The translations under genes were made by a program, and so were the position numbers. Below the pieces are notes generated by a model. It was not told where the DNA came from. It was given only the letters and a program-made list of their open reading frames with translations, and did no database searches. Shown piece after piece: positions 1-59,840 of a stretch of 64,000 bases of DNA. The stretch lies in NCBI GenBank assembly GCA_000092065.1, contig CP000594.1, one strand, 5' to 3'. Position 1 is the stretch's first letter, and each line of letters opens with the position of its first letter. Origin of the DNA: Ostreococcus lucimarinus (taxonomy: Eukaryota).

Positions 1-832
1 AATGCGAGAATGCTGAAACCGATGACGAAGATGCGCTTACCAACGTTACCGACGGCGTGAGTCACCGGAGCAACCTTGCCGAGCGCTTGGTAGGCGACTT
101 GGTTGTACATGTGGTAGTAGAAACCAACAGAGGCGAGCGCCATGAGGAATTCCGTTTTACCCTTGACGGCGATGGCTTTGCTGATGCCCGCCGAGAGCGT
201 CGGGCCTTCAAAGTAGACGGCGAACGGCAAGCAGAAGAGCAAGGCGACGATGGTGACCCAGTTGTACAGGTTAAGCGGAGACATCTTGCTCATGAGCTTC
301 TTGCTGAAGATGGCGCGCGCAGAGAACGCGATGTTGGAGCTCATGGCCGTCAAGAAGCCCAACCACGTGAAGGAAAGCTCGGTGGCGCTCGCGATGGCGA
401 CGCCGGCGATGACGGGAAGCAAGGACAAGTACACCGGAAGCGGGTACACGGTACCTGCGACCAAGTACGAGCCAATGGACGTGAACACCGGTTCGAGCGT
501 CTTAACGGTGTGCGTGAACGACACCGCCACCGCCGCGAACGAGACATTTGTCAAGCAGTGCCCGAACGCGTGCAAAAACGCCGGCAACGACAGCGCCTTC
601 AAAAACTCCTTGTCGGGTTGTTCGTACTCGACCAACTTGGTACCCCAAGAAGAACGCCATGATGAACAACCCGACGATCAAGTGCACGCAAGACACGAAC
701 CACGGGTACGGGAAGTAGTTGTAGATCGTCTTGTTGATGATGTTAAACTGCACGTTTAAAAAGTACCACGCCGCGAAGTAAAACACGGTTTCGAGCTGCG
801 GGTACTTTTCCTTGATCTCCGCCAGCGGTCCA
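1..832 (-). CDS. Plastidic phosphate translocator (TPT/PPT family, DMT superfamily). The 3' end is cut by the window edge and there is an internal +1 frameshift.
   Basis: Minus-strand translation gives [46 protein letters not shown], then (after a frame switch) [35 protein letters not shown], and at the window edge [23 protein letters not shown]; all three are TPT-family signatures. A CGACTGACGG branch box and AG acceptor lie near 832 to 840. A possible ATG micro-exon (MGKNVGILSRPPRAR, donor GTGCGTCG) sits near 1249 to 1294. Confidence 0.8.
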
Positions 833-1665
833 CTGTTCGCTCGAACGACGCGCGATTCGATCCGTCAGTCTTAGTCTTCGTCTCGCGTCCACCTCCCGTC
901 GCCACCTTCCATCGCGTCGAAACACCCGATCGTTCCGGCGCGCGCGCGCGACCGCCCCCTGGAAAAACCTAACGCAGGCCCCGCGGTCGAGGGCGATCCT
1001 GGACACCCGATTCTCGACCCCCCCCCCGCGTCCCACGCGCGCGCGGGCGCGCGTCCGCGCGCGCCGCGCGCGCCGTTTCGCGCGCGACGCCTCCGTCGCC
1101 CCCCCCGTTCGCGCTCGAATCCACCGTCCCGTCCCGCCCTCGCCGCGCGCGCGCGTCAACTCAAACCATCCGACGCGACGAAAGCGGTTGCCGTCGCGCC
1201 ATCGCCTCCGCGCGCCTCGCGCCTCGCGCGCGCGCTCGTTCGACGCACCTCGCGCTCGCGGCGGTCGTGATAATATCCCCACGTTTTTTCCCATCGCGCG
1301 TCGCGCGCGTCGCGCGTCGCGCGAGCGTCGCCGACGTCGCGAGCGCGACGCGCGAAACCTCGCGCGCGCGCGTCGCGCGCGGCGTCGCGAGCGCGCGCGG
1401 CGTCGCGCGCGGCGCGCGGCGCGTCGCCGGGCGCGCCGCGATCGCGGGGCGCGTCGTCGCGACGGTCGCCACGGTCGCCACGGTCATCATCGCGCGCGTG
1501 TCGTCGAGCGGTCGCGCGCGGCGTCGTCTGCCGCGCAATGCGACGCGCGAGGGTCGTTGCGCGTCGAAAAAAAAGCGCGCGCGAACTGTTTGCCCATAGC
1601 GGCGCTTTTTTTTCGTTCCGTGTTTACGCGCAGTCTCGTTTTTCGTACCGGTCGCGACCGGATGG

Positions 1666-6755: not shown

Positions 6756-6890
6756 CCGCGATCGACGATCGATCGATCGATCGATCGTCGTTCGCGGGGA
6801 AACTCGATCGACGTCGCGAGCTTCGACGCGCGCGCGCGATCGGCGCCGATCGATCGATCGATCGATCGATCGTCGATGGATGCGAAACCC
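6756..6890. repeat. (TCGA/GATC)n palindromic tetranucleotide microsatellite in two blocks within the DNPEP/eIF3b bidirectional promoter.
   Basis: gatcgacgatcgatcgatcgatcgatcgtcg at about 6756 to 6790 and gatcgatcgatcgatcgatcgatcgtcgatgg at about 6856 to 6890, lying between ATG 6700 (minus) and ATG 6923 (plus). Confidence 0.9.
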
Positions 6891-6922
6891 CAAGAGCATC
6901 GGGAGTGCGCGACGCGCGCGCC

Positions 6923-9277
6923 ATGGACGACGTGCCCGCGAGCTTTCCGCGCGGCGAGGTGCGGACGACGCGACGCGAACGCGACGACGCGACGCGACGG
7001 CGACGCGGCGACGCGCGACGGCGACGCGCGACGACGCGCGACGACGAGGAAACCGATCGAGAGCGGGTTCGGCGGCTCGCGCGCGACGGCGAGGGGGAGG
7101 GCGGCGCGCGCGGGCGACGCGATGCGAGCGACGCGAGCGGAGACTGACGAGACGGACGATTCGCGGCGCAGGATGGATTCGTGGATTGGGACAAGGTGGA
7201 CGTCGAGAGCGTGGAGCTGCCCGCGGATGAAATCAAACGCGCCGGGTTGGATCAACCGGTGAAGGTGGAGTTGGAGGAAGCGAAGGAAGATACCGGGTTC
7301 GCGAGCGTGATCGTCGTGGATAATTTGCCGCAGATTCCCGAGGCGAAGTTTGGCAAGCTGTTGAACGTGCTGACGAAGATTTTTACCCAAATTGGTGAAA
7401 TCCGAGAGGGAGGGATGTTGATGCCGCAAGACGAGGCGACGAAGACGTCTCTCGGATACGCGTTTGTGGAGTTTGCGAACGAGCAACAGGCGCAGAGCGC
7501 GGTGGAACAAACGGATGGGTATAAATTGGATAAGACGCACATCTTCAAGGTTTGCAAGTTTGATGACTTTGAAAAGTACCAAAAGGTGCCGGATGAGTAC
7601 GTCGCGCCGCCGCCGAAGCCGTTCGCGCCGCGCGAGAACACTCAAGCGTGGATGATGGATCAGCGTGGGCGCGATCAATTCGTGTGCCGATTCGGCGATG
7701 AGACGCAAATCTTTTGGAACGATCCCCAGACGAAGAAGGGCGAGGATGTGTACACGCGTACGCACTGGACGGAGTCGTATGTGCAGTGGTCGCCCAAGGG
7801 GAGTTTCTTGGCGACGGTGCACAGACAAGGCGTTGCACTGTGGGGTGGTGATTCGTTCGGACGTATCGCTAAGTACGGTCACAATGGCGTTCAATTCATT
7901 GAATTCTCTCCATGCGAGCGATTCCTCGCCACTGGGTCCACGCACGATCCGACCACGGCGGACGGAGTGACATCCGTCCTCGTCAACTTTTTCGACACGC
8001 GCTCGGGCGCCAAGTTGCGTACTTTCATGGGACCTATTAGTGATTTCATAGCCCAAGGCCAACAAGGTTTGAGGTGGCCGGTGTTCAAGTGGTCGGGGCA
8101 GAGTAGCGATGAGAGCGGATGCTTCTTTGCCAAGATGGGCACAGGCATGATTTCCGTGTACGCCGCCCCGGAAATGACGCTGGTGGATAAGAAGTCCATC
8201 AAAGTCGACGGCGTGGTTGATTTCTGCTGGTCCCCGACGGATCCTATCTTGGCCACGTTCCAACCCGAACAAGGTCTCGGTAACCAACCGGCGCGCCTTT
8301 CTTTGATTTCTCTGCCGAGTAAGAAAGAAGTTCGTTCGAAAAACTTGTTATGCACCGGTAGCATCGTCGGCGTCAACATGTACTGGCAAGCGAGCGGTGA
8401 TTACTTTGGGGCTAAGGTTTTACGGACGACCAAGTCAGGGAAGACGACGTATAGTGGTTTCGAGTTGTTCCGCTTGCGCGAACCAAACTGCCCAATGGAA
8501 GTTGTTGAACTCGCCAACAAGGCTGAGAAGATTGTCGCGTTTGCGTGGGAGCCGAAGGGCCATCGCTTTGCCGTCATTCACGGCGACGGTGCGCGTCCGG
8601 ATGTCTCTTTCTACAGCATGAAGGATAAGCAAGGTAACAACAACTGCACGTTGATTGGTACCGTCAAGAATAAGACGGCCAACCATTTGTTCTGGAGTCC
8701 GAATGGGCGCGTCGTCATCTTGGCGGGTCTGAAGACGATGAACGGTCAGTTTGAGTTCTTCGACGTAGAAACCATGGAAACCATGGCGAGCGTCGAGCAC
8801 TTTATGGCAACTGATGTCGAGTGGGATCCCACCGGTCGTTTTGTCACCACGGCGGTGACGAGCGTGCACCAAATGGAGAATGGATACCACATGTGGACGT
8901 TCAACGGCAAGCTGCTGTACAAGTACGGCAAGGATCGTTTCTTCCAGTTTTTGTGGCGTCCTCGCGCAAAGTCCTTGCTCACGGCAGAACAAGAGGCCGA
9001 TATCGAGAAGAACATCAAGAAGTACAGCAAGAGGTTCGAAGAGATCGACGAGAAGATCAGAAACGAGGCGGATTCCAACGTCGCGAGCGAGAAGAGAGCG
9101 ACGGCGGAGAAGTGGAAGAAGTGGGTCGAGTCCAAGAAGGCTGTTCGGGACACCCCGATCTACAAGCAAGCGCTCGACGAGTTGCTTGGCGATCAAGCCA
9201 AGGCAAAGTTGGACTTTGTCGAGACCACCGTCATCGAGGAAGAGATTTTATCCATCGTCGAAGAACCGCTTTCGTAG
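6923..9277 (+). CDS. EIF3B: Translation initiation factor eIF3 subunit b (RRM plus WD40 propeller). Proposed structure is a 5' micro-exon at 6923 to 6958 joined to a main exon at 7172 to 9277.
   Basis: The main ORF (DWDKVDVESVELP...DTGFASVIVVDNLPQIPEAKFGKL...) aligns with the plant eIF3b N-terminus and RRM. The track start at 7181 is GTG, with no in-frame ATG upstream before a stop. Upstream, ATG 6923 (MDDVPASFPRGE) is followed by a GTGCGG donor, and a GAGACTGACGAG branch box lies 24 nt before the AG at about 7170, both in phase 0. Confidence 0.85.
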
Positions 9278-9384: not shown

Positions 9385-9993
9385 TCATCGCCGCGACGGC
9401 ACGGTGCACCAGCCATCGTCGTCTGGCTCGTTTTTCAAACGTCGCGCCGACGTGTCCAGCGCGTCGTCGCCGCTCGGGTGAACGTTAAAAGCCCCACCCA
9501 ACTGCTCGGCGAGCCCATCGGCGTCGACGGCGTCCATTTCATCATCTCCTTCATCATCACTCGAGCTCGCTCCGGTGTCCATGTCCCCACCACCGTTCAT
9601 CGACCATCGCTTGTCTTCTTCGATTTGTCTGCTTCGCTCGATCGACTCGCGCGGGAGCGGCTTCGATTCAATCTGCGCAACCATATCGTACCTTCCCTCC
9701 GCACACTGCTCGTACATCATCCACAGCGCCTTCGCCACCTCACCCGGCGACCCATCCTCGCACGTGACGTTAAAATCATCCCCTAATATCTCAATCAACA
9801 AATCCTCCAACTCGAGCGCGTCCTTGCTCTTGCGCGACGCGAACCACTCCGCGATCTCCTCTTCCGCCTCCCGCGCCTTCCGTTCGCTCTCCGTCCCCCC
9901 CCACGCGTTCACCACCGCCAGCTGCATCGCCGTCCACCGATCGAACACCGCTTTCACCCCCCTGCGAAACGTCGGCGCGTGCTCGCTCGCCAT
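9385..9993 (-). CDS. TSR2: Pre-rRNA processing protein TSR2 homologue.
   Basis: FRRGVKAVFDRWTAMQLAVVNAWGG is the TSR2/WGG-domain signature. The track ORF runs to 10104 with a GTG start; the first ATG, MASEHAPT, is near 9993. Confidence 0.75.
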   Translation of the reverse strand: MASEHAPTFRRGVKAVFDRWTAMQLAVVNAWGGTESERKAREAEEEIAEWFASRKSKDALELEDLLIEILGDDFNVTCEDGSPGEVAKALWMMYEQCAEGRYDMVAQIESKPLPRESIERSRQIEEDKRWSMNGGGDMDTGASSSDDEGDDEMDAVDADGLAEQLGGAFNVHPSGDDALDTSARRLKNEPDDDGWCTVPSRR

Positions 9994-10554
9994 CTTCGTC
10001 CCGCCCGGCCGTCCCATGAGCATCGCCCTCGCCTCCGCCGCGCTCCTCGGCGTCGCTCGCGCCTCCGCCGCGCCTCCCACCGCGCGTCCCGAGCGCAGTC
10101 GCATCTCATCCTGCCTCGCGCGCGATCGCTCGCGTCGTCAGTCACCGTCGGGTCGTCGTCGTCGTCGCCGCCGCCGCCGCCGTCGCCGGCGCGTCTTCAT
10201 TCGCGTCTTCGTTCGCGTCGCCTCGCGCGCGCGCACCGTCGCCGCGCTCGACGCGCCGCTTCGAAGCTCCATCGCGCGTCGGCGCGTCGCGCGCCGTCGT
10301 CCGCCGTCGGTCGGCGCGCGCGTCGCGCCGTCGCGCCGTCGTTTTCGACGACGATTCCATCGATCGCGCGCGACGCCGGCGAACCTCGAACCGTCGATCG
10401 ACGCCGCGCGAACGAACCTCGCGTCCGAGGTTCGAGCGCGCGCGTTTTGGATAAAATCATCCGACGCCGCGCGAAGAACGACGCGCGCTCGAGAGACGGC
10501 GACGCGCGACGCGCGAGCGAGGCGACCGAGCGGGAAACGACGCGAGCGGGAGCG

Positions 10555-11785: not shown

Positions 11786-12779
11786 CTACTTTTTCGCCGC
11801 CAGCGGTCCTAGAATGTTCAACGCTCGCTCTAACGCCTCCACCGCGGTGTTCACGTCGTCGAAACCCAACGCGCTTACCGCATTCTTTGCGTGTCGCTGC
11901 GCGTCGGCGATGCTTCCAACGTCGATCTTCGGCGGTGTGACCCCAGGCGGCGCTCGACCGCCTCGAACCACCGGCGTTTTGCTCGTAGCCTTCGATGGGG
12001 CGCCCGTGTTTACACCAGCTGGTGGTCCACTGGCCACGTGTGGCGGTGGAGGTGGCGGCGGCGGCGGTTGATGCCTCGGCGCCGGCGGCAATTCCACCTC
12101 TGGCTCCGCCGACGACGCCTCCGCCTCGACGCCTATCTCGCTTCGCTCTTCGCCCTCATCATCTACTGGCGGTGCGGTCGCATTTCGACCCTCTCTACAC
12201 GCTTTCGTTATCTCCGCCGCACGCCACTCCGCGTACCGCTGCTTGTTCTCTATATCTGCGTCCAATTTCCCGTCGGCGTCAAACTGTCGCAAAACGTTGA
12301 AGAAGATTGATGACGCGTAAAACATTTTTGCCGTGTTCATCCCTCGCGAGCCACCCCGATCGGCCCGATCGGCCTTTACGAATATTTGCAAAGCGAACGA
12401 CTCGCACTCCAGCTCATCGTGTTCCTCGTTCAGTTCGTCTTTCATCTTCGCCTTGGCGCGCTCGAGCCGTTCCATGGCGTCCGACAGCGCCTCGTTAACC
12501 TCCGCCGAGCGATAATCGAGTTTCAGCCCCTCGCGCACGGCATGCATGCGGCAGTAATACGCAATTTTCGGTTTCGCCGCGTCCAACTCCTGCGCACGCT
12601 TCAGAATCGGCGCGATGAGCTTCAACTGTTTGACGAAGCGAATCTCTCGACGTGGTCAGTCGCGAACTTTGACACGACGATTCCGCGCGTTGCGGGACGT
12701 AAACGCGCGATGACGCGTTCGAGATCATGGTGTCATGTGCGTTATAGGTCGGAACGCGGTCACGCACCTGGTCAGCCAT
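11786..12779 (-). CDS. VTA1: Vta1/LIP5 (Vps4 cofactor). Two exons: 12779 to 12768 and 12625 to 11786.
   Basis: LKLIAPILKRAQELDAAKPKIAYYCRMHAVREGLKL and FALQIFVKADRADRGGSRGMNTAKMFYASSIFFNVL match Vta1/LIP5, as does the C-terminal VSALGFDDVNTAVEALERAL. The ORF-track start at 12625 is TTG. Upstream lie ATGGCTGACCAG, a GTGCGTGA donor, a GCGACTGACC branch box and a CAAACAG acceptor (intron about 142 nt). Confidence 0.85.
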
Positions 12780-21331: not shown

Positions 21332-22070
21332 TGCACGCATCGCACGAGTAGGTTTGTCTATTTTACTTAGTCTAATTCCCGAGGCGTGCGATCGCATCGC
21401 GTTCGCGTTCCCATTCGGCTCGTTCCGGGCGCGACGCGTCTCGCTCCTCTCGCCGCGTCACGACGCCCAGTCTCGCGCCATCTGTTCGCTCTTGCGATCA
21501 CCGTGCGCGTCCCCGCTCGTTCTCGCGGCCGCCGCCTTGGACGCGCGCACTTTACTCGCCATCGCTTCGCTCTGTCGTCGTCGCGCGTCGTCGTCCTCGC
21601 CGTCAGTCGCGTCGTCACGCCGTCTCGAGCCAACCGTCGCGCACCTTGATCCCGCGCATCTCGCTTTGCTTATTCCGCGCTTCCGCGGCTTTCAGCGCCA
21701 TCGCTCGGCGCTCGTCGACCGTGGCGAGATCGTCGTACGGCGCCGAGGCGCAGCATCCCATCGGACGCGATCCCAGTCGGCGGCGTCGACGTCGCGATGT
21801 GACGGGGGCGCCGCCGCGGCGACGGGAGTGAGTTGAAGCAATGAATCGATTATTATTACATAACCTCGTAGTCGTATATGGTGGACGCGAGCCCCTATCG
21901 CGCGTTTAAAAACACGCGAGTTTATGGTATAGTTCGTTTTCACACCGCAGAAAGCATAGACTCGTCGAAGCGATATTTTCCATCGCTCGACGACGCTGCG
22001 TTTTTGCGAGCGCGCTCCTCCGTGGAACGCGCTCGCAGAAGACATTTTTCATATCATGATTTACATCATG

Positions 22071-22154: not shown

Positions 22155-24257
22155 TTACTTCTTGTTCTCCAGGAGTAATCGCAAAATCCGTTTACCGAAC
22201 GGACTATTTTTGATCAATGGCAAGTGTGGTCTGATACGCTCGACAAGTTCGGTGTGAAGAACACCTTTTGTGACAGTGAGCGTTGACTGCACGACGTAGT
22301 TACCGTACGGATCCATGAGAAGACGGTCCAACAGGGGCGACTGCATGATTTCACGCACGACCGTGTTGCGATTCTTCTCGAGAGACGCGTCGGCGAGTTT
22401 GAGGCACTTCTCGACAACGTTGGAGCTGAACTTCTGCATGGAGAGTTCGGCATAGTTGCCGAGGAGCTGCGTCATAACTTCTCCGTTGGCCCAAGACAAT
22501 CCGAGGTCCAAAATGTATTGAACGACGTAGTTTCCAAAAGGATCTTGAGAAAGCACGAGCGCTTGAGAGGCGATTTCGAGCACCAACGGACGACGTTGTT
22601 CATCAATGGCGTGGTCGATGCAACGCTGAAGAACGCAACAACCGTGTCGGTGAGTCGCAATCTCAACACAGTGCACCTTGGCCGCGTCATAGATGAATTG
22701 GTTGTCTTCAGACGACAATCTTTGAAGGCACCGCTGAATTACGTGGTTACCATTCAAGTCCTTGATCAAAGTAACGACCCCAGGTCGTAATGCGTTCGTC
22801 GCCAGAGAAACCTCTTCGGGAGAGTTGAGCATCTCGATCAACTTTTGAACCGCGCGAGTACCGTGCGTGTTCAAAGCGATAGTGACGAGCTCAGGCAACC
22901 CATCAAGTGAATCATCCTTGACGACAGAAACCGCGCGTAGAACTCCAGAACGTTGTTCGTCGCTGCAGCACTCGATCAACTTTTGCACCAAATAGTTGCC
23001 AAAGGGATCCATCATTAACTCGACGGCTTCGGCGATGATTTCATCGTAGCACAAGTCGACGGCTTTGGCACCTTCTTCATCAAACTTCCGTTGTAAGAAT
23101 CGGCAACCGTGTTGATCGCGCGCGAGCACAGAAATCTGTCCGACGCAGTTGTCGACGGAGACGAAACGACTGTCCATCTCCGCGATTTCAGCCTCGGACG
23201 GAGGAGAATCAGATCGCGCAACCGAACCGGAGAGCGACTGTGAGCCACCCCCATTTCGATCGCCTCGATCACCCGCACGATTTCTTCCCATAGTTCTACC
23301 AACGCGAGAGCGATCGTCTCGACCGCTCATGCGCGAGCCGTAGCCACCGTTATCGCCCCCGGCCATCCCGCCGTCGAGACCAGAGAATTGCTGAAGCTGT
23401 TGCGCAGTCAAGTTCTGATGCATAAGTCCAGGAACTTGTTGCTGCATGCGCATCAAGTTCTGCAACTGCTGTTGCTGAGCGTAGAAAGCGGCAGCGTACG
23501 CAGCTTGGTAGACTTCAGCCATGGATTGCGGTTGACCATTCGCGCCGTAACCCGCACCGCCGAGCCCGCCGCCGAGGTTCGACGCGAGAAGCTGCGCCAT
23601 CTCCGGCGTTTGGACAGGCATACCGCCCGACATGCCGCCTAAACCGACACCAGCACCCATCCCAAAAGCATCCATGCCCGCCATGGACGGCGTGCCTTGG
23701 AGCTGCTGCATTTGCTGCAGCTGCTGCAACTGGAGCTGGAGCATGGCGGCGTTATCCATACCACCGCCGGCGCCCACGGCGCCGTAAGCGCCCATGACCG
23801 GTGCCGGAGAGGCACTTTGCGAATTCGCTTCAGTGCTAAATCGCGATGAGTTACCCACAAAGCTCGCTTGCTGTCCGTGAGGAGCGGCGTGCGAGCCGTG
23901 CGGCGGAAGCGGCGCGGTGGATGGCCGCAGCGGCACATCCGTCCCTAACCCGAAGCTGGAGAACGCGCTCACGACATCCGTCGTGCCTTGTCCCAAACTA
24001 CTACCCGCCATATTCCCCATACCATTCAGATCGCTCGGCAACCCAAACGCGCTCTCGTTGAACGCTCCGTTTGACATCGAGTTCGACCGCCCGTGGTGCC
24101 CCGACGGAATCGCCCCGTCGTCTCTCGACGCCCCAAACAACCCACCACCCTTCCCGAACCCCGCGGCGTGTCCGAAGTGTCCAGAGTTGTGCGCACTATC
24201 GGCATCACCCGCTGCCGTCTTCCCGTACGACAAATCTACCGCCGACGCGCTCCGCAC
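22155..24257 (-). CDS. Pumilio-family (PUF repeat) RNA-binding protein; the true N-terminus is unresolved.
   Basis: Eight PUF repeats (...DQHGCRFLQRKF..., DPFGNYLVQKLIE, HGTRAVQKLIE, NGNHVIQRCLQ, HRHGCCVLQRCID, DPFGNYVVQYILD, FSSNVVEKCL, DPYGNYVVQSTL) and a Q-rich N-terminal region. The track start is GTG, with no in-frame ATG before MSNGAF. Upstream lie a GTGACTGACGG branch box and a CGCAG acceptor near 24318 to 24345, implying a 5' intron. Confidence 0.85.
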   Translation of the reverse strand: MRSASAVDLSYGKTAAGDADSAHNSGHFGHAAGFGKGGGLFGASRDDGAIPSGHHGRSNSMSNGAFNESAFGLPSDLNGMGNMAGSSLGQGTTDVVSAFSSFGLGTDVPLRPSTAPLPPHGSHAAPHGQQASFVGNSSRFSTEANSQSASPAPVMGAYGAVGAGGGMDNAAMLQLQLQQLQQMQQLQGTPSMAGMDAFGMGAGVGLGGMSGGMPVQTPEMAQLLASNLGGGLGGAGYGANGQPQSMAEVYQAAYAAAFYAQQQQLQNLMRMQQQVPGLMHQNLTAQQLQQFSGLDGGMAGGDNGGYGSRMSGRDDRSRVGRTMGRNRAGDRGDRNGGGSQSLSGSVARSDSPPSEAEIAEMDSRFVSVDNCVGQISVLARDQHGCRFLQRKFDEEGAKAVDLCYDEIIAEAVELMMDPFGNYLVQKLIECCSDEQRSGVLRAVSVVKDDSLDGLPELVTIALNTHGTRAVQKLIEMLNSPEEVSLATNALRPGVVTLIKDLNGNHVIQRCLQRLSSEDNQFIYDAAKVHCVEIATHRHGCCVLQRCIDHAIDEQRRPLVLEIASQALVLSQDPFGNYVVQYILDLGLSWANGEVMTQLLGNYAELSMQKFSSNVVEKCLKLADASLEKNRNTVVREIMQSPLLDRLLMDPYGNYVVQSTLTVTKGVLHTELVERIRPHLPLIKNSPFGKRILRLLLENKK

Positions 24258-24639
24258 GAGGTCATCCGTCGCCCCCTCGCCCGCGGCGCGCGTCTCGTCC
24301 CGCAGTAACCTCGAAAACGTGCTCTCGTACTCCCTGCGTCCCGCGCGAGCGCGCGAAATCCGTCAGTCACCGAAGCGCGCGTGCGTTTCATCTCTCCTTC
24401 CCCGCATCGTCTCGTCTCGCGCGCTCCCGCTCGCGCGGACGTCGCGCGACGCGTCCAGAGTCACGCCGCGCGGATGTCTCGAGTCGCGCCGCGCGCGCGC
24501 CGCGACGAAACCGCGCGCGTTCGAGCGCCGCGACGCGCCCACGCCGCGTCCGCGTCCGCGCGCGACGCGCGACGTAAATTCTTCTTCCGGATTCTCGCCG
24601 CGCGAATCCCGCGCGCGAGCCCTCGACGACGACGACGCG

Positions 24640-24676
24640 TCCCATCGCGTCGCATCGCATCGCATCGCATCGCGTC
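24640..24676. repeat. (GCATC)n pentanucleotide repeat upstream of Pumilio.
   Basis: cgcatcgcatcgcatcgcatcgcg. Confidence 0.8.
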
Positions 24677-25094
24677 GCGAAACCCCCGCACCTCCACGAC
24701 GGTGACGTCCCCGCGATGTCGTGCGCGCCCTCGCTCGCGCTCGCGCTCGCGCCGCCATCGCTCGATGGTTTAAACATCTGCGTCCTCGCGGCGCGTCCGC
24801 GCGTCTATCGCCCGCCGCGCGGACGAGCGCGTCGTCGATCGACGCGCGGACGCGCGCGGATGTCGAGCGCGACGCGCGCGGCGTCGGCGCGTTCGAATCG
24901 ATCGTCGCTCGAGCGCGCGATGCGAATCCACCGAGCCCGCGACGCGGGCGTCGAGCGACGGCGTTCGAATCGATTCGCGCGCCCGCGTCGCCGTGCGTCG
25001 CGAAGCGCGCGCCGTGCGACCTCGACGACGGCGCGTCGAACGCGACGCCCGAGCGTGCGTGTGCGGGCGCGGCGGCGGCGGCGAGGCGCCGCGC

Positions 25095-25205
25095 GAACGA
25101 TCGAACGATCGATCGATCGATCGATCGATCGAACGATTCGCGAACCCGATCGATCGATCGATCGCGCGCGCGAACGATCGATCGACGTCGATCGATCGAT
25201 CGACC
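25095..25205. repeat. (TCGA/GATC)n microsatellite cluster in the Pumilio/TAPT1 divergent promoter.
   Basis: gaacgatcgaacgatcgatcgatcgatcgatcgatcgaacg...cccgatcgatcgatcgatcgcg...cgatcgatcgacgtcgatcgatcgatcgacc. Confidence 0.9.
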
Positions 25206-30641: not shown

Positions 30642-31161
30642 ATGGCGGATTCGGTGACGCAGTTACAGAACCAAATCAACACTCTGTGTCAGTTGATGTT
30701 CAACTACGCCGGGACGCTGCAGCGCGACGCCAAGCCGGTGCGACGACCGACGCGCTCGACCGCTCGAAAAATGCGCGACGCCGCGCGCGAACTCTCGCCC
30801 GTGCGACACGACTGACGCCGCGCGCGGCGCCGATGAACAGGCCACGATCGGACCGAACGGTGAACTCAACGATGCGCTCACCGAGGGTGGGGTGACGCGA
30901 GCGGAGATAGACGAAATGGCAGCCACGATCGCCGAGGCGAACCGAGTGATTATGGAAATCGCGCGCGCGCTGCCGGAGATCGATACGGATGAGAAAGCAG
31001 CGCGTAAACGCATCGCCGCGCTTCACGCGGAGCACGACAAGGTGAGTAAAGAATTAGAAACCGTCATCGCGCAGGCGAAGGCGGAGTTAGACGTCATCAA
31101 CGCCGCTTTCAAAGCCGCGGCGAGCGGCGTATTGGCGCTCGACGACGAAGCGACCGATTAG
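30642..31161 (+). CDS. MED21: Mediator subunit MED21 (Srb7). Two exons: 30642 to 30737 and 30841 to 31161.
   Basis: Exon 1, MADSVTQLQNQINTLCQLMFNYAGTLQRDAKP, resembles human MED21 [28 protein letters not shown]. It is followed by a GTGCGA donor, an ACGACTGACGCC branch box and a GAACAG acceptor. Exon 2 (...EIDEMAATIAEANRVIMEIARALPEID...) matches MED21 helix 2. Confidence 0.7.
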
Positions 31162-31617: not shown

Positions 31618-31640
31618 GCCTCCGCGATCGATCGATCGAT
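31618..31640. repeat. (TCGA)n in the NDUFA2/RPS24 divergent promoter.
   Basis: gcgatcgatcgatcgatcgacg, lying between ATG 31536 (minus) and ATG 31813 (plus). Confidence 0.85.
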
Positions 31641-31812: not shown

Positions 31813-32479
31813 ATGACCAACACGTCGTGCACGATCCGCACGCGCAAGTTCATGACGAACCGCCTGCTGCAGCGCCGTCAATTCGTACGTGTCGCGCGCG
31901 CGAGCGAACGCGAGAACCAGCGACGAGGACGAGGACGGGACGATGGGGCGATCCCGCGGCGGGCGGATGCGTCGCGCGCGACGCGCGCGGCGACGGATGG
32001 ATGAGACGCGCGATGGATGAATACTGACGATGAATACTTTTCACGCGCACAGATTCTCGATGTGCTTCACCCGGGTCGCGCCAACGTCGCCAAGGTGCGT
32101 CCAACATCGTGACGGCTTGGGGTTTTTTGACCCTAAAATGCCCGCGCGAGCGACGCGGCTGACTCGAACGCGACGACTGACGATTGATTGGTGTTTAACG
32201 ATGTAGGCTGAGCTCCAAGAGAAGTTAGCTAAGATGTACAACGTGTCCGATGAGAAGTGCGTGTCCATCTTCGGGTTTCGCACGGCGTTTGGTGGCGGTA
32301 AGTCCACCGGGTTTGGTTTGATCTACGACAACCTCGACGCGTTCAAGAAGTTCGAACCGAAGCACCGCCTCATCCGCGCTGGCTTGAAGGATGCCGTCCA
32401 AAAGTCCCGCAAGAACATCAAGGAGAAGAAGAACCGTGTCAAGAAGCTCCGTGGTGGCGCCAAGAACAAGGTTATGTAA
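31813..32479 (+). CDS. RPS24: 40S ribosomal protein S24 (eS24). Three exons: 31813 to 31884, 32052 to 32093 and 32207 to 32479.
   Basis: [24 protein letters not shown] | [14 protein letters not shown] | [60 protein letters not shown]... Introns have GTACGTGT/GTGCGTCC donors and TACTGACGA/CGACTGACGA branch boxes. Confidence 0.9.
32475..32479 (+). promoter_or_regulatory. Putative TGTAA poly(A) signal overlapping the RPS24 stop codon.
   Basis: gttaTGTAAatc. Confidence 0.35.
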
Positions 32480-40801: not shown

Positions 40802-42346
40802 ATGGCGACGTTCGCTCGGGCGCTCGGATGCGAGCCGACGGCGATTCGGGAGCGCAACGAAATGAATACGCGACGTCCATCGCGTTCATCCGTCTCGCAT
40901 CGCGGGCGACGCGTCATCGCCGCGGCGCAGGCCCCGGACGGAACTGAGCTCGCGCGCGTGCTCGAGGTGCGTGCGCTCGACGAGTTCGTCGCGCTCGACT
41001 GACGCTCGCGAATTTTCTAGGTGGCCGTGGGCGCGGCGAAGGAGGGTGGAATCATCATGGCTCGAAAAGTCGGCGCAGATGTGATTAAAACCAAAGTGAA
41101 CGCGCGTGACTTGCTCACAGAGGTGGACGGAGAGGTGCAGCGCATCATAGAGACGCGCGTGGCTGAGGCTTTCCCAGAACACGGATTTTTGGTGAGTACT
41201 GCGCGAGCGAAGGCAACGGTATGAAACTCACGATGGACGTAGGGTGAAGAAAGCGTCGCGGCGGGCAAAGACGCGAGCGCGGACGCGCTGAGAGACGTCC
41301 TGCGACAAGGTAAGCTGTGCGCGACTCAGGGATTCGTGGGAATAATTTAATTAATTTTTTATATATAATAAACGAGTGTCGACGAGCGAGTGCGCACGCG
41401 ACTGACGATTCATCGCATTTACAGGACCGAACTGGCTTTGGATTGTCGATCCCATCGACGGCACGACGAACTTCGTGCACGGCATGCCATTATCCGCGAT
41501 TTCTATTGGCGTGGCGTACAAAGGGTGAGTATTAAATGATTTCCCGTCGGTTGTTTCACGCGCAAACGTCGCTCGCACGTGGCCTTTCGAGGCGCTGGTT
41601 TCACACGCGTACTGACAATAATTCATAAAACAGGGAATTACAAGCGGCTGTGATTTTAGATCCGTTCCGAGACGAATGCTTCACCGCTACGCTCGGTGGT
41701 GGCGCTAAATTAAATGGTTCGCCCATGAAGGTGGGAGAGGAGAGTACTGCGTTGGAAGCAGTCGTCGTCACTGGATACGCACCCACGGATGCATCGACAG
41801 ATGTCATGCTCAAAGGGATGACAGGTAAACACGCGCTCGCGCGTCGTTAACGTCGAAAATTGATTTCGTGACAAAATATTCTGACCAATTAATTATTTCG
41901 CTCGCAGCGCTGGCGAATTTACCCGTTCGTACGATCCGCATGTTAGGAAGTGCAGCCATCATGCTTGCGTGGGTGGCTTGTGGAAGGGTAACGGCGTACT
42001 TCGAGGCTGATTTGAATAGCTGGGACACCGCAGGTGGAGCTTTGTTGGTGGGTATTTCTATTAATTTAATTCACCAGAATTTAATTAGTTCTCGATGCAG
42101 ATCAGAGAAGCGGGCGGGCAAATGACGAACTTGGTCGGCGAGGAGTACGGTACGTCAGATAAAAAATCGAGCGATCGAAATACGACGGTATTGCGAACTT
42201 ACGCGCGGTCCACGCGATCGAAGATAACTGGACTGATTAAATAAATTCTTGTGCGCACAGACTTGACCACGCGCCCCATTTTAGCGAGCAACAGGGCGAC
42301 GCACGCAGAGCTCTTAGCTTGCCTGATGGTTTCTCTACGCCATTGA
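40802..42346 (+). CDS. Inositol monophosphatase (IMPase family) with 8 exons (approximately 40802 to 40966, 41021 to 41191, 41243 to 41309, 41425 to 41524, 41634 to 41824, 41908 to 42047, 42101 to 42149 and 42261 to 42346).
   Basis: The spliced product carries the IMPase motifs ...[24 protein letters not shown]|GEESVAAG...|[33 protein letters not shown]|...LGGGAKLNG...|...[34 protein letters not shown]|[10 protein letters not shown]...|[11 protein letters not shown]. All seven introns are short (51 to 115 nt) and AT-rich, with GT(R)AGT/GTACGT donors and CTGAC branch boxes. Confidence 0.85.
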
Positions 42347-49734: not shown

Positions 49735-49739
49735 GTAGT

Positions 49740-49844
49740 GACAATGACGGGATTTGAACCCGCGCGCGTGAGCAGTGGAAAGTTTCGCGCGTCGATCCGC
49801 GTGCGGCCTAAATCCACCCCCTTAGACCACTCGGGCACATTGTC
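49740..49844 (-). tRNA. tRNA-Leu(UAG) with a roughly 20 to 26 nt intron.
   Basis: Minus strand: GACAATG TG CCCGAGTGGTCTAAGGG G GTGGA TTTAGG[intron]...TCCAC TGCTCACGCGCGC GGGTTCAAATCCCGT CATTGTC A. Perfect 7-bp acceptor stem, 3-bp D-stem and long variable arm (type II), loop UUUAGG (anticodon UAG) and A73 discriminator; followed by a T5 run. Confidence 0.7.
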
Positions 49845-50042: not shown

Positions 50043-50517
50043 TCACGGCGACGGCGGCGCGGCGGAGACTTTGGCGGCGCGCGACGCGGGGTCGAGCGCG
50101 GCCGCCTTCTTCAGAGCCTTCTCCACGCCCTGGATCAATCTGGCGTTTTTCTGCGAGTCCGTGGAACGACGCGCGCGGCGTCAGTCGTCGAGTTTCGCGC
50201 GCGGGCGGCGCGCGAGCGAAGGATGCGAGCGTCGCGCGTCGACGGCGCGCACCAGGGCGTTGCGTTGGCGCGTTTGGGACATCTTCGCGAACGCGTGCGT
50301 CTTCCAGATGATCCCGCCTGCGCGCGAGCGACCGCGCGTGACGCGCGCGATGCGTCAGTCGATGATCGCGTTCGGCGCTCGCGCGTCTCGGCGCGCGCGT
50401 CGGGCGCCAGCGGTCGCGCGCGATCGAGTCGAGGTCGAATCCAGCGGTGCGCGCGCGCGACGTACCTCGCGCGAACGGGCCTTTCTTGACCGCCATGAGC
50501 ACGAACGAGGTGAACAT
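50043..50517 (-). CDS. Predicted 3-exon small protein (about 74 aa) of unknown function, approximately complement(50043..50150, 50253..50317, 50466..50517).
   Basis: Found only through splice grammar. Exon 1, MFTSFVLMAVKKGPFAR, ends at GTACGTCGCG; the intron has a CGACTGACGC branch box and a CGCGCAG acceptor. Exon 2, GIIWKTHAFAKMSQTRQRNAL, ends at GTGCGCGCC; the second intron has a CGACTGACGCC branch box and a CGCAG acceptor. Exon 3 is KNARLIQGVEKALKKAAALDPASRAAKVSAAPPSP*. Phases are consistent. Confidence 0.45.
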
Positions 50518-51564: not shown

Positions 51565-51780
51565 GACGTGCGACCTTTTCGCCCTTCCCTCGCGCGCCCG
51601 CGGGTCGCGCCGCGCGCCGCGCGTCGTCCACTGGCGTCGTTCGCGCGGATTCGGAGACGCGATGGTGGCGCGAACGACCGTGCCTAGGGTTTTGTTTTAC
51701 ACTACTGTAGACCCACGAACGCCATCAAGGGTTTTTATCGGCACCGCGCGACACGTCCGCCGGGACGTCGCACATCGGCG

Positions 51781-54160: not shown

Positions 54161-55160
54161 CGCGCGTTCGATGACGCCCCGAATCTTGCCAGTCAGCCGT
54201 CACCCTCGAACGTGCGATCGACGCGACGCTTCGACGCGTCCCGTCGACGCTGAGACCGCGCCTCGATCACGCGCGCGCGTCGTCGCCGACCGCGTCGACC
54301 CGCCGCGATCGTCGCGCGCGCCGAACGCGAGCTCGATTCGATTCGCCGGCGACGTTTCGCAGTCAACGGCGAGCGTTAATTGCGCCTCCTCGGTGCGCTC
54401 TTCGCGCGTTTCCCGGCGTGCGCGCGATTCTCGCGGTGCGTTGACGCGTGGGCGTCGGAAATGCGACGCGCCTCGATCGCGGGCGTCGGAAAGTGCGGCG
54501 CGCGCGTCGTTCGCGAGGGGTACCGAGTCGCCAAAATCGGTCGCGATGGCGCGTGCGTTCGCGAGCGACAGGGAGCCTGACTCCCGGGTGTTTTCGGATC
54601 GGCGAGTCAGGATTCAAAAACGAGTCCCCCCTCGAGGGGGCCTCGTTTTCGGGTGTTTCGAGAACGCCCGCGAGATAGACCCCCCCTCGCGGCGACCGAC
54701 CGACATCGCGTTTCGTGGACGTCGAATACGAGCGCGGGCGCGTTTGTGCGATAAATCTGGCGATGTCGGTCGGTCGCCGCGCGGTCGCCGCGCGCCGCTC
54801 GAGACGTGACTGGGAAAGGAGCTGGACTACACGCGACGACGACGACTACGGCGGGGCGGCTACGAGCGAGTCGACGCTCGAGCGCTCGCGCGCGCGTCGG
54901 CGCGCGTTCGCGAGGTAGGTTTCGCGTCTTCGCGCTCGTCGTCGTCGTCGTGGACTCGGACGCCGCGCTTCGCGAGCTCGCGCCTGGCGCGCGCGACGTC
55001 TCGCGCGAGCGCCTCGGCTTCGGCTTCGCACGTGGGGAACCAAATCACGCCTCGCGCGATGACGACGACGGAGTACAGCGCGAACGCAACGACGGCGTAG
55101 ATCGGGGCCTGTGGATTTGGATTCGATCGCGCGCGCGTGGGGTCAGCGTCTTCGTCTCGC

Positions 55161-55196
55161 GTTCGCGTTCGCGTTCGCGTTCGCGTTCGCGTTCGC
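55161..55196. repeat. (GTTCGC)6 hexanucleotide repeat.
   Basis: gttcgcgttcgcgttcgcgttcgcgttcgcgttcgc. Confidence 0.9.
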
Positions 55197-55621
55197 GCGC
55201 GTCGAGCGTCGTACCGCGACCACCAGCGCTCGCGCGCTCGGCGTGAGCTCGGCGTTGCGAAGCGTGGCGTACCACACGCTCAGTAATACCGCTCCAACGC
55301 CACCTGCGACATCGCGCGGGGTCAGTCGTCGTCGTCGTCGTCGGTGCGCGCGACGTCGAGACGGTGCGTCCGCGTCGATCATCATCGCGCTCGATCGCGA
55401 CGACGCGCGCACGCACCGAACTGCTGCGCGCGCGTCATACCGCGCGCGCGCGCTCTCGACGCGCGCGCGCGATCGCGCCTCCAACGCGCGCCGCGTCGCG
55501 AAGTGCGGGCGACGAATCGACGACGCATCGCGACGCAACCACCGCGGAATCGCGCGATCGGCGACGTCACACGACGACCCCACCCGCGCGCGCGTCGACG
55601 CGACGCGCGAGCGACGCGAAT

Positions 55622-56490: not shown

Positions 56491-56827
56491 TCATTCCTCC
56501 ACGTCGTCCTCGTCGTCCTCGAACGTTTGCGTCTCGCGAGCGAGCGCGCTCAACAAAAATTCAGAGCTCTCGAGTATGCGATCGAGCGATGATTCACCCT
56601 CTTGAATGACTTTGTCGTACGCCTTGACGCGCTCGCGGTCCCGCGCCACGCGTTGTTCGAGCTCCTTCACCCGTCGTCGGAGCGTCTCTCCATCGCGCGC
56701 GCTCGCCTCGATCCGCGCCAGCGTCGCGCGTTTTCGTCTCTGCAGCTCGCTCAAACCTTTCTCGCGCGCGTCGTTCGTCCGCGTCAGTCACTCGTTCTCG
56801 GGCACACGAACCGTCGAGTTTTCCCAT
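56491..56827 (-). CDS. Small coiled-coil protein (about 93 aa) with 2 exons, approximately complement(56491..56756, 56812..56827).
   Basis: The track ORF starts at TTG. Upstream lie ATGGGAAAACTCGACG, a GTTCGT donor, a 55-nt intron with a GTGACTGACGC branch box and an AAAG acceptor, then GT TTG AGC..., in consistent phase. The product is MGKLDGLSELQRRKRATLARIEAS...KAYDKVIQEGESSLDRILESSEFLLSAL... Confidence 0.5.
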
Positions 56828-57141
56828 CCTTCATTCGTTCGACGCGCGCCGACGCGGGACGCACTCTTTCCCACGGCCTCTTGCGTCTGGCGCATCACGA
56901 GCGTCTTCGTCGTCTCCCCGGACGCCATGAGTTCGCGACGGCGCCGTCGCGAAGTGCGCGTCGTCGACGGCGCGGCGTCGCATCGCGCGGCGTCCTCGGG
57001 ATCGATGCTCGATGCGTAATATAAAAGACGAAAAGAGAACCATGTGTGAACGCGCCCGATGGCTAAATCGACGACGCGGTCCCGAACCCTCGCGCGGCGC
57101 CGACCGCGCGCGTCACTGCGCGACGCCGACGTTCGCGCGCG

Positions 57142-58007
57142 ATGCTCGCTTCGCAAGTCTCCACGTTCGCCCGAGGCGATGCCACGATTTCCCCGCAATC
57201 CACCGCGCGCGGTCGCACCGTCGTCCGCGCGACGATCGAGGCGAAGGAGTCGCGCATCGGGAAGCAGCCGGTGGCGGTGCCGAAGGGGGTGACGTACACC
57301 CTGAAGGATAACCATCTCGCGGTGAAGGTGCGCGCGGCGCGATGCGACGCGCGCGACGCGGGAAAGCGCGCGAGGGATTACGTTTCATCGACGCGCGCGA
57401 TCCGCGACGGCGTGACGGGGGAAAACGCGCGACGACGACCCCAATCCCACGCGACCAGGGCTTGAGGTTGTAGGGTTTTCCGCGCGCGTCGGACGGCGAA
57501 GAGACGAAGAGACTGACGAGAACGCATCGATCGCCGCGCGCCGCATCGCAGGGACCGAAGGGTAGCTTGGAAATGTCGTTCCCGGACACCATGGTGTTCA
57601 CGGAAGAGGGTGACTCGATCAAGATTTCTCGCGCGAACGACACCCCGGACGCGCGCAAGGGTCACGGGTTGTACCGCACGCTCGCGAACAACATGATGGT
57701 GGGCGTGTCTACTGGCTTTGAGAAGAAGCTGAAGTTGTTGGGTGTGGGTTACAAGGCTTCCATGCAAGGGAAGGACCTTAACTTGGCGTTGGGCTACTCC
57801 CACCCGGTGATTATGAAGTTGCCGGAGGGGGTCCAGGTGACGTGCCCGTCGAACACCGAGGTTGTCGTGAGCGGCTACGACAAGGTTGAAGTTGGTAACT
57901 TTGCGGCGATCATTCGCTCTAAGCGTCCGCCGGAGCCTTACAAGGGTAAGGGTATCAGGTATGAGAACGAGGTCGTGATTCAAAAGGAGGGTAAGCGCGG
58001 GAAGTAG
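57142..58007 (+). CDS. RPL6: Plastid 50S ribosomal protein L6 (uL6c). Two exons: 57142 to 57327 and 57552 to 58007.
   Basis: Exon 1 carries a transit peptide plus SRIGKQPVAVPKGVTYTLKDNHLAVK. It is followed by a GTGCGCGCGG donor, an AGACTGACGAG branch box and a CATCGCAG acceptor. Exon 2 reads GPKGSLEMSFPDTMVFTEEGDSIKISRANDT...LLGVGYKA...GYSHPVIMKLPEGV... (bacterial-type uL6). Confidence 0.85.
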
Positions 58008-59607: not shown

Positions 59608-59619
59608 TTAATATACGGC

Positions 59620-59751
59620 TCCTCCCTACCCGAATCGAACGGGTGACCCGCTGATTACCACGTGGTCCTTCGTTCGCGATGACGCTGTGACGCGCCGTAT
59701 TTCAGGAGTGTATCCTACAGTCAGCTGCTCTTCCATCTGAGCTAAGAGAGG
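59620..59751 (-). tRNA. tRNA-Tyr(GUA) with a 59-nt intron.
   Basis: Minus strand: CCTCTCT TA GCTC AGATGGAA GAGC A GCTGA CTGTAG[GATACACTCC...CACGTGGTA]A TCAGC GGGTC ACCCG TTCGATT CGGGT AGGGAGG A. Stems pair perfectly, the anticodon is GUA, and the intron lies at the canonical 37/38 position; a T7 run follows 12 nt downstream. Confidence 0.8.
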
Positions 59752-59840
59752 CTTTATAGCGCGTACAACGACGTTGTAATCGCTATCAACGAAATAAAAA
59801 GCCGATCGCTCGCCCCCCGATCGCGTTCGCGGTCGTCGCG

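Follow-up and report, generated by a model that had tools for sequence, protein, structure and literature searches.

Splice signals and short first exons in a 64-kb stretch of the Ostreococcus lucimarinus genome, centred on eIF3b

Intron-poor yeasts have a strong TACTAAC box, introns biased to the 5' ends of genes and, in their ribosomal-protein genes, very short first exons. Ostreococcus lucimarinus has something comparable, and the subject of this account is one instance of it, the 36-nucleotide (nt) first exon and first intron of the gene for the translation initiation factor subunit eIF3b, within a stretch of 64,000 nt of contig CP000594.1 (assembly GCA_000092065.1), here called the window. 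The likeness to yeast lies in the scarcity of introns, strict donor and branch signals, introns near the start codon and the possibility of an exon 1 of few codons; the differences are a box that reads ACTGAC and not TACTAAC, a donor of GTGCGT and not GTATGT, and GC-rich sequence, and by analogy the shared architecture would be convergence and not shared descent. Far closer are the introns of O. lucimarinus CCE9901 itself, those outside chromosome 2 confirmed by expressed sequence tags (Irimia & Roy 2008, PLoS Genet 4:e1000148, PMC2483917), of which 87.2% have ACTGAC and 66.5% GACTGACG, with GTGCGTG as donor, CGCAG as acceptor and a branch-to-AG distance of ~20-35 bp; in the same paper the introns of chromosome 2 are short with weak signals, and first-exon length is not discussed. 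The window introns have the same donor, box, box-to-AG distance and acceptor as the non-chromosome-2 set, and nothing of substance differs. At the time of that work 17,592 expressed sequence tags of the strain stood in GenBank. The splice grammar, with its GTGCG donor and its ACTGAC/GACTGACG box 15-35 nt ahead of YAG, has been in print for this genome since 2008, and the eIF3b micro-exon is already in RefSeq. Micromonas is similar in the AG/GTGCGT donor (a slash marks a splice junction here and below) and NCTGAC motif of its canonical introns and in the GACTGACG of the IE-C elements of Micromonas commoda, but it is another genus, its branch-to-acceptor distance is 43-52 bp, and the IE-C elements are repeated whereas the window introns are unique (Verhelst et al. 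2013, PMC3879977, where the Ostreococcus box is also cited).

The sequence between the two eIF3b exons (Table 1) is, in all likelihood, an ordinary U2-type spliceosomal intron, by its signals one of the canonical non-chromosome-2 class, that joins the 36-nt exon to the body of the gene. Its junctions read ATGGACGACGTGCCCGCGAGCTTTCCGCGCGGCGAG/GTGCGG ... GAGACTGACGAG ... GGCGCAG/GATGGATTCGTG. All the marks of the class are present: GT (6959-6960) and AG (7170-7171) at the boundaries; a donor, GTGCGG at 6959-6964, whose 7-mer GTGCGGA agrees with GTGCGTG at 5 of 7 positions, GTGCG included; a branch box, ACTGAC at 7143-7148 within GAGACTGACGAG at 7140-7151, which contains GACTGACG, 21 nt ahead of the AG and so within the 20-35 bp of the class; and an acceptor, GCGCAG up to 7171, of the CGCAG type. 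The ATG at 6923 is in the same frame as exon 2. The earliest in-frame ATG of exon 2 is ~94 codons into the long open reading frame (ORF), within the RRM, and an upstream coding exon is therefore needed. The preliminary description, made from the letters of the window, had given this exon and its 213-nt intron with exactly these coordinates, and the spliced product of 713 residues is identical to RefSeq XP_001421305.1 of O. lucimarinus CCE9901, the strain whose nuclear DNA the window therefore represents. That record is titled "predicted protein", while the UniRef name for the protein identical to the model is eIF3 subunit B; the homologues have PF00076 and PF08662, an N-terminal RRM and then an eIF2A-type beta-propeller, and the length accords with the ~700 residues looked for. 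As to how splicing would proceed, donor, branch box and first suitable YAG would define the intron, with ACTGAC presumably pairing with U2 small nuclear RNA and its boxed A serving as branch point, and phase-0 joining would give the full frame. Were the intron retained, translation would, to read it from the sequence, end after 74 codons at the TGA within ACTGAC (7145-7147), which is the sole in-frame stop of the intron, and the unspliced message would, on general grounds, be expected to decay.

Much of the case comes from relatives. A near-identical transcript-derived protein of Ostreococcus sp. (P0256, UniRef A0A7R9XT05) has the N-terminus MDDVPASFPRDEDGFVDW with the junction MDDVPASFPRDE/DGFVDW; that of Mantoniella antarctica (P0011/P0336, MMETSP, likewise transcript-derived) begins MQAIPAHLPRGEDGYVDW and carries the spliced junction, a further transcript-derived protein (P0012) begins METIPSSLPRGEDGYVKW, and the O. 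tauri RefSeq protein XP_022841172.1 (P0280) begins MDAIPSNFPRDEDGFVDW. Syntenic contigs of two other Ostreococcus lineages keep the 36-nt exon, as MEAIPSEFPRLE in L001 and MDAIPSNFPRDE in L004, each with GTGCGC (GTGCGCG) directly after it and ACTGAC ~22-27 nt before CAG, while the remainder of the intron diverges in sequence and length. The comparison of orthologous N-termini that the preliminary description had proposed as a check finds the exon-1 peptide conserved in P0256, P0011, P0012 and P0280. Is it nevertheless conceivable that there is no splicing, so that the ATG at 6923 opens an upstream ORF of 74 codons ending at the TGA of the box, with eIF3b itself started from a non-AUG codon or from the AUG ~94 codons downstream? 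The unspliced frame from 6923 is open up to that TGA, and prokaryote-style calls on the L001 and L004 contigs do start eIF3b at a GTG overlapping the acceptor (P0001, "MQDGFVDW"), with loss of exon 1. However, the transcript-derived proteins of the near-identical Ostreococcus and of Mantoniella have the exon-1 peptide fused to DG[FY]VDW, that peptide is conserved in three Ostreococcus lineages where the rest of the supposed upstream ORF is not, and a start at the downstream AUG would cut into the RRM, so that translation without splicing is very improbable.

The box shared with the IE-C elements of Micromonas commoda (PMC3879977) raises another thought, that the eIF3b intron belongs to a repeated mobile 'introner' family of the Micromonas kind. 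We give this next to no credence. Compared all against all, the 22 introns of the window gave matches of at most 22 nt, of GACGCG-type low complexity or the box itself; the eIF3b intron has no second copy within the window and shows no extended similarity to any other intron or elsewhere in the window, and its position, being common to three Ostreococcus lineages, is therefore old.

Whether the TGA of the box does double duty is a subtler matter. The intron could be spliced with retention as a regulated second state, the TGA then being a fail-safe stop that tunes eIF3b output. Eight introns have a length divisible by three. Each of these contains an in-frame stop, and in three of them (eIF3b, TSR2 and the second intron of the gene at 50 kb) the box TGA is the only one; across the set it shares the frame of the upstream exon in 10 of 19 introns, where 6.3 would be expected. 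That excess is not significant (one-sided P 0.065, from a small sample partly chosen by the motif), though, and if selection generally favoured stop codons in retained introns the outcome would look alike with no special role for the box, so that regulated retention is unlikely, and splicing of an ordinary intron is the account preferred here.

How general are the signals? The set comprises 22 introns in 13 genes within the window, supported by exact RefSeq or Logan matches, by Pfam profiles unbroken across the junctions, or by related loci. ACTGAC occurs in 17 of them, CTGAC in 19, GACTGACG in 13 and CGACTGAC, which is the GACTGACG of PMC2483917 shifted one base, in 9; the donor GT[GA]CG[TC] is found in 13 and GT[GA]CG in 17, C stands at acceptor position -3 in 18, and the end of the branch motif is 15-34 nt ahead of the AG. 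With the inositol monophosphatase (IMPase) gene left out, ACTGAC is in 14 of 15, to be set beside the published 87.2%. The whole-window count of CGACTGAC is 13 against 4.66 expected, a number reached in 0 of 100 shuffles, with its four extra-intronic copies equal to chance expectation; for ACTGAC the enrichment is only mild (29 against 21.2), but 17 of those 29 copies are intronic and in sense orientation, and the sense strands of the 22 introns amount to 2.4% of the sequence counted on both strands (binomial P ~1e-20). The motif is strongly position-specific, real and useful, and it is neither "near-invariant" nor in "every intron", as the preliminary description had it of CGACTGAC or ACTGAC; the donor it took as general, GT(G/A)CG(T/C), does not even fit the GTGCGG of eIF3b. 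It was right to see ACTGAC in both introns of RPS24 and in those of MED21, RPL6 (which is plastid uL6), Vta1 and the 50-kb gene. ACTGAC copies at 2803, 3325, 3768, 8745, 18127, 26355, 30688, 35786, 37718, 42958, 45283 and 49086 were set aside as chance, being antisense, inside continuous ORFs or with no usable donor or AG.

Several points weigh against so tidy a picture. Introns were found partly by way of the motif, which biases the 77% figure for ACTGAC upward; the IMPase gene, defined by homology alone, has it in 3 of 7 introns; the eIF3b donor is off consensus at +6; and for strain CCE9901 the junction is deduced from the RefSeq model, from conservation and from transcript-derived proteins that are nearly identical.

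Thirteen of the ~45 genes in the window have introns, and in 13 of 13 no more than 250 nt separate the ATG from the beginning of the first intron, which is why first exons of 12-64 nt are common. Such 5' bias is usual for intron-poor genomes, and the pattern of the window would be that of 5'-biased, strong-signal introns in one of them. Placing the sites demands more than the box: GAG and AAG sites between it and the used acceptor are skipped in TSR2 and Vta1, and phase and conservation are therefore needed. When exons were chained without reference to the motif, by a codon-usage model that used GT/AG only and charged a fixed penalty per intron, the 64-nt exon of SSNA1, the 242-nt exon of TPT and the junction in MED21 all came out. 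Adjacent genes were also fused and wrong donors picked, and the chaining, rejected as a basis for annotation, was kept as a lead only.

Table 1. Exons, introns and gene models in the window (positions count from its first letter; models on the minus strand are listed in their reading order)
Feature	Position	Strand	Description
eIF3b exon 1	6923-6958	+	36 nt, ATG and 11 codons, encodes MDDVPASFPRGE, phase 0; from sequence, RefSeq identity and conservation
eIF3b intron 1	6959-7171	+	213 nt, GT-AG, phase 0
eIF3b exon 2	7172-9277	+	RRM and beta-propeller, through stop codon
TSR2 (WGG) exon 1, predicted	10237-10272	-	36 nt, MELRSGASSAAT
TSR2 intron	10111-10236	-	GTGCGC ... GTGACTGAC ... CAG
TSR2 exon 2	9385-10110	-	
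Vta1 exon 1	12768-12779	-	12 nt, MADQ; conserved, as in RefSeq
Vta1 intron	12626-12767	-	GTGCGT ... CGACTGAC ... CAG
Vta1 exon 2	11786-12625	-	
SSNA1-like exon 1	56865-56928	-	64 nt, MASGETTKTLVMRQTQEAVGK, phase 1; conserved
SSNA1-like intron	56757-56864	-	GTGCGT ... GTGACTGAC ... AAG
SSNA1-like exon 2	56491-56756	-	
Rejected 16-nt 'exon'	56812-56827	-	MGKLD + G, donor GTTCGT, 55-nt intron; inside SSNA1-like intron
TPT-family transporter exon 1	1249-1490	-	242 nt, MMTVATVATVATTRPAIAAR..., phase 2, ATG 1490
TPT intron	833-1248	-	GTGCGT ... AAGACTGAC ... CAG
TPT exon 2	from 832	-	runs off window start
Pumilio exon 1	24692-24777	-	86 nt, MFKPSSDGGASASASEGAHDIAGTSPSW + AG, phase 2
Pumilio intron	24334-24691	-	GTGCGG ... 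GTGACTGAC ... CAG
Pumilio exon 2	22155-24333	-	
DPM3	54860-55438	-	exons 55417-55438 (22 nt), 55215-55303, 54860-55108
IMPase	40802-42346	+	8 exons, 7 introns
MED21	30642-31161	+	exons 30642-30737, 30841-31161; intron with ACTGAC; XP_001421312.1; Med21 profile 1-142 of 144
RPS24	31813-32479	+	exons 31813-31884, 32053-32094, 32207-32479; both introns with ACTGAC; Ribosomal_S24e 1-93 of 95
74-amino-acid gene	50043-50517	-	exons 50466-50517 (52 nt), 50253-50317, 50043-50150; both introns with CGACTGAC
SVIP-like gene	21458-21761	-	exons 21645-21761, 21458-21571; intron 21572-21644 with CGACTGAC; XP_001421493.1
Plastid uL6	57142-58007	+	exons 57142-57327, 57552-58007; XP_001421323.1
Plastid uL6 intron	57328-57551	+	GTGCGC donor, ACTGAC

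The short first exons proposed alongside that of eIF3b fared variously. For Vta1 the 12-nt exon encoding MADQ stands, the junctions being ATGGCTGACCAG/GTGCGT ... CGACTGAC ... AAACAG/TTGAAG and the spliced model an exact match to XP_001421488.1; the exon reads MVDQ in L001 and MADQ in L004 with the donor directly after it in each, and residues 8-149 of the model match 2-145 of the 145 positions of the Pfam Vta1 profile. The coiled-coil gene at 56.5 kb is an SSNA1 homologue (PF27720 SSNA1 in precomputed tables; the local copy of Pfam gave no match, and PDB sequences only chance coiled-coil matches). There the 3' end of the intron had been seen correctly and the 16-nt first exon had not. The 64-nt exon ends A/GTGCGT and joins the same acceptor in frame, and its peptide and donor are kept in three lineages (MAAGDATKTLVMRQTHDAVGK in L025, MAREDSAKALVMRQTQEAVGK in L023, ...AKTLVMRQTHEAVEK in L022), while P0248 reads MATTATTVNDASSAKTLVMRQTHEAVEKSLQELQRRKRATL, with junction ...KTLVMRQTHEAVEKSLQELQRRKRATL, consistent with splicing of an L022-type gene from a closely related sequence. 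The 16-nt version is exactly RefSeq XP_001421505.1, and its ATG is absent in L022 and L023, both of which keep the upstream exon; on this comparison we conclude that it is a probable mis-annotation common to the preliminary description and RefSeq. A wild ENA contig (P0241) orthologous to the SSNA1-like intron has no in-frame stop in it, CGA replacing TGA just before CTGAC, for which reason a caller gave a 145-residue read-through 'protein', an illustration of how intron retention is mis-called in metagenomes.

For the TPT-family transporter, whose first exon had been sought near 1249-1294, the donor at 1248 and the box (864-869) were right. Alignment with the acceptors of L001 and L004 gives AACAG/T, for which exon 1 must supply two bases; a 46-nt exon, of phase 1, supplies one and is out of phase with it. 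The 242-nt exon has a product, MMTVATVATVATTRPAIAARPATRR..., that is Ala/Arg/Thr-rich and transit-peptide-like, and exon 1 is comparably long in the O. tauri-like L004. In exon 2, at 639-654 (-), one extra T in the window (TTCTTC-T-TGGGG) shifts the reading frame; it is absent, with the ORF intact, in the same-species wild contigs L027 and L028 and in L001 and L004, and would by this comparison have arisen either by mutation in culture or as an error of the reference assembly. The intron is polymorphic in length within the species, since L027 and L028, otherwise near-identical, lack ~200 nt of it (~960-1151, -).

In Pumilio the preliminary description had recognized branch and acceptor but could not find exon 1; the same grammar led to it. 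Two proteins (P0360 and P0363, 754 amino acids, contigs of ~2.9 kb) have the N-terminus of the model and differ from it at 4 residues, a contig that lacks the intron (L008) has ...AGCTGGAG/GGAGTACGAG at this junction, and L007 and L010 keep exon 1, donor, branch box and acceptor. L010 comes from a more distant Ostreococcus, and its Pumilio orthologue contains a further intron at ~1215-1420 (GTGCGT ... CGACTGAC) which the window lacks; intron presence therefore varies between lineages.

Micro-exons of this kind had been called cryptic. Those of eIF3b and Vta1 are identical in the RefSeq CCE9901 models, and letter-for-letter matches extend to the rebuilt MED21, SVIP and plastid uL6; comparative evidence differs from RefSeq on the SSNA1-like exon of 64 nt and on an extra 36-nt exon in TSR2. 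The latter, as predicted by comparison of lineages, is the one clearly unannotated micro-exon found. L001 (MKLRSGAKSGET) and L004 (MMLRSGAQSGET) both have it, with a number of synonymous changes at third positions, and both keep the donor, branch box and acceptor; RefSeq XP_001421487.1 lacks it and starts 41 residues further in. In each of the three lineages the N-terminus encoded by this gene has M-x-LRSG twice, first in exon 1 and again where exon 2 opens, and of the gene's ATG codons RefSeq uses the third, further downstream, and metagenome callers the second. DPM3 also has a short first exon, kept in L020 where the intron is variable; its introns carry CGACTGAC and CGCTGAC, and residues 1-88 of the model match the Pfam DPM3 profile over 1-90 of 90.

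The IMPase gene is the main departure from the grammar. A single stretch of Pfam Inositol_P (2-266 of 271) covers all its junctions. Its introns, of 51-115 nt and AT-rich (30-61% GC), have the donors GTGAGT, GTAAGC, GTAAAC and GTGGGT, and the motif that had been ascribed to all seven is wanting in four: ACTGAC is in three, TCTGAC in one and ACTGAT in one, with no CTRAY motif in two. In length, GC content, GTRNGT-like donors and the lack of ACTGAC in 4 of 7 they resemble the chromosome-2 type of Ostreococcus intron, which is short and low in GC with a weak branch signal (PMC2483917, PMC3879977), but the neighbours are ordinary high-GC genes with canonical introns.

As for the other models, that of RPS24 has an exact match in Logan assemblies, and the 74-amino-acid gene at 50 kb has no Pfam family match. 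No exact record was found for the Pumilio, DPM3, IMPase and 50-kb-gene models, and RefSeq therefore differs or lacks them. Spliced models of Vta1, TSR2, TPT and eIF3b were also made from L001 and L004, and none of these had an exact record, probably because of strain differences; the O. tauri annotation is therefore usable for eIF3b only; the metagenome scan yielded mostly the same species at 99% identity, and so little cross-species information.

Some further observations concern the surroundings. The 222-bp divergent promoter between the M18 aminopeptidase gene (ATG 6700, -) and eIF3b holds two (CGAT)n microsatellites (6766-6785 and 6847-6870); other such tracts are at 31625-31640, between the PF05047 gene and RPS24, and at 25106-25162. 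Upstream of the eIF3b ATG (~6884-6896) is a telo-box-like element, GAAACCCCAAG, kept in three Ostreococcus lineages, L001 and L004 included. AAAACCC(T/C)A or close variants also occur at 57471-57479 (uL6 intron), 32118-32126 (RPS24 intron 2), 51685-51693 (intergenic) and ~990-1002 (TPT intron). Translation-related genes have them in promoters and first introns, where by analogy with land-plant ribosomal-protein genes they may serve as a common cis-regulatory element. Rfam places a tRNA of 106 nt, a length that would leave room for an intron, at 49739-49844 (-), and ARAGORN found no tRNA in the window; a second tRNA-like gene seen by eye at ~59617-59757 (-), which is Tyr-like (anticodon GTA) and has an intron of ~70 nt, goes unreported by ARAGORN and by Rfam, which is empty at 59.45-59.85 kb.

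What does this amount to? The expectation of spliceosomal introns with strong donor and box after short ATG exons is borne out at eIF3b and Vta1, but the grammar by itself is not enough to locate the start codon, which it mis-sets in 2 of 4 micro-exon examples (SSNA1-like and TPT), the former error being in RefSeq as well. The biology is ordinary, and the value is mainly in minor annotation fixes, with little beyond annotation: corrected or new 5' ends for SSNA1-like, TPT, Pumilio, TSR2 and DPM3. That ORF-based callers miss such exons holds true: metagenome calls of the same genes begin at a GTG or TTG that lies within the intron or just beyond it, which shows directly that picoeukaryote proteins are truncated at the N-terminus when genes of marine metagenomes are called in the prokaryotic style. 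A more venturesome proposition is that, in introns of a length divisible by three, the TGA of ACTGAC is kept in the upstream frame as a built-in stop, by which unspliced message would be terminated and removed, and, more modestly, that the 2007 annotation has systematic N-terminal errors, of which the missing TSR2 exon, the mis-set SSNA1 exon, Pumilio and DPM3 would be cases. It is a doubtful one; if true, the published grammar together with cross-species comparison would mend N-terminal errors genome-wide.

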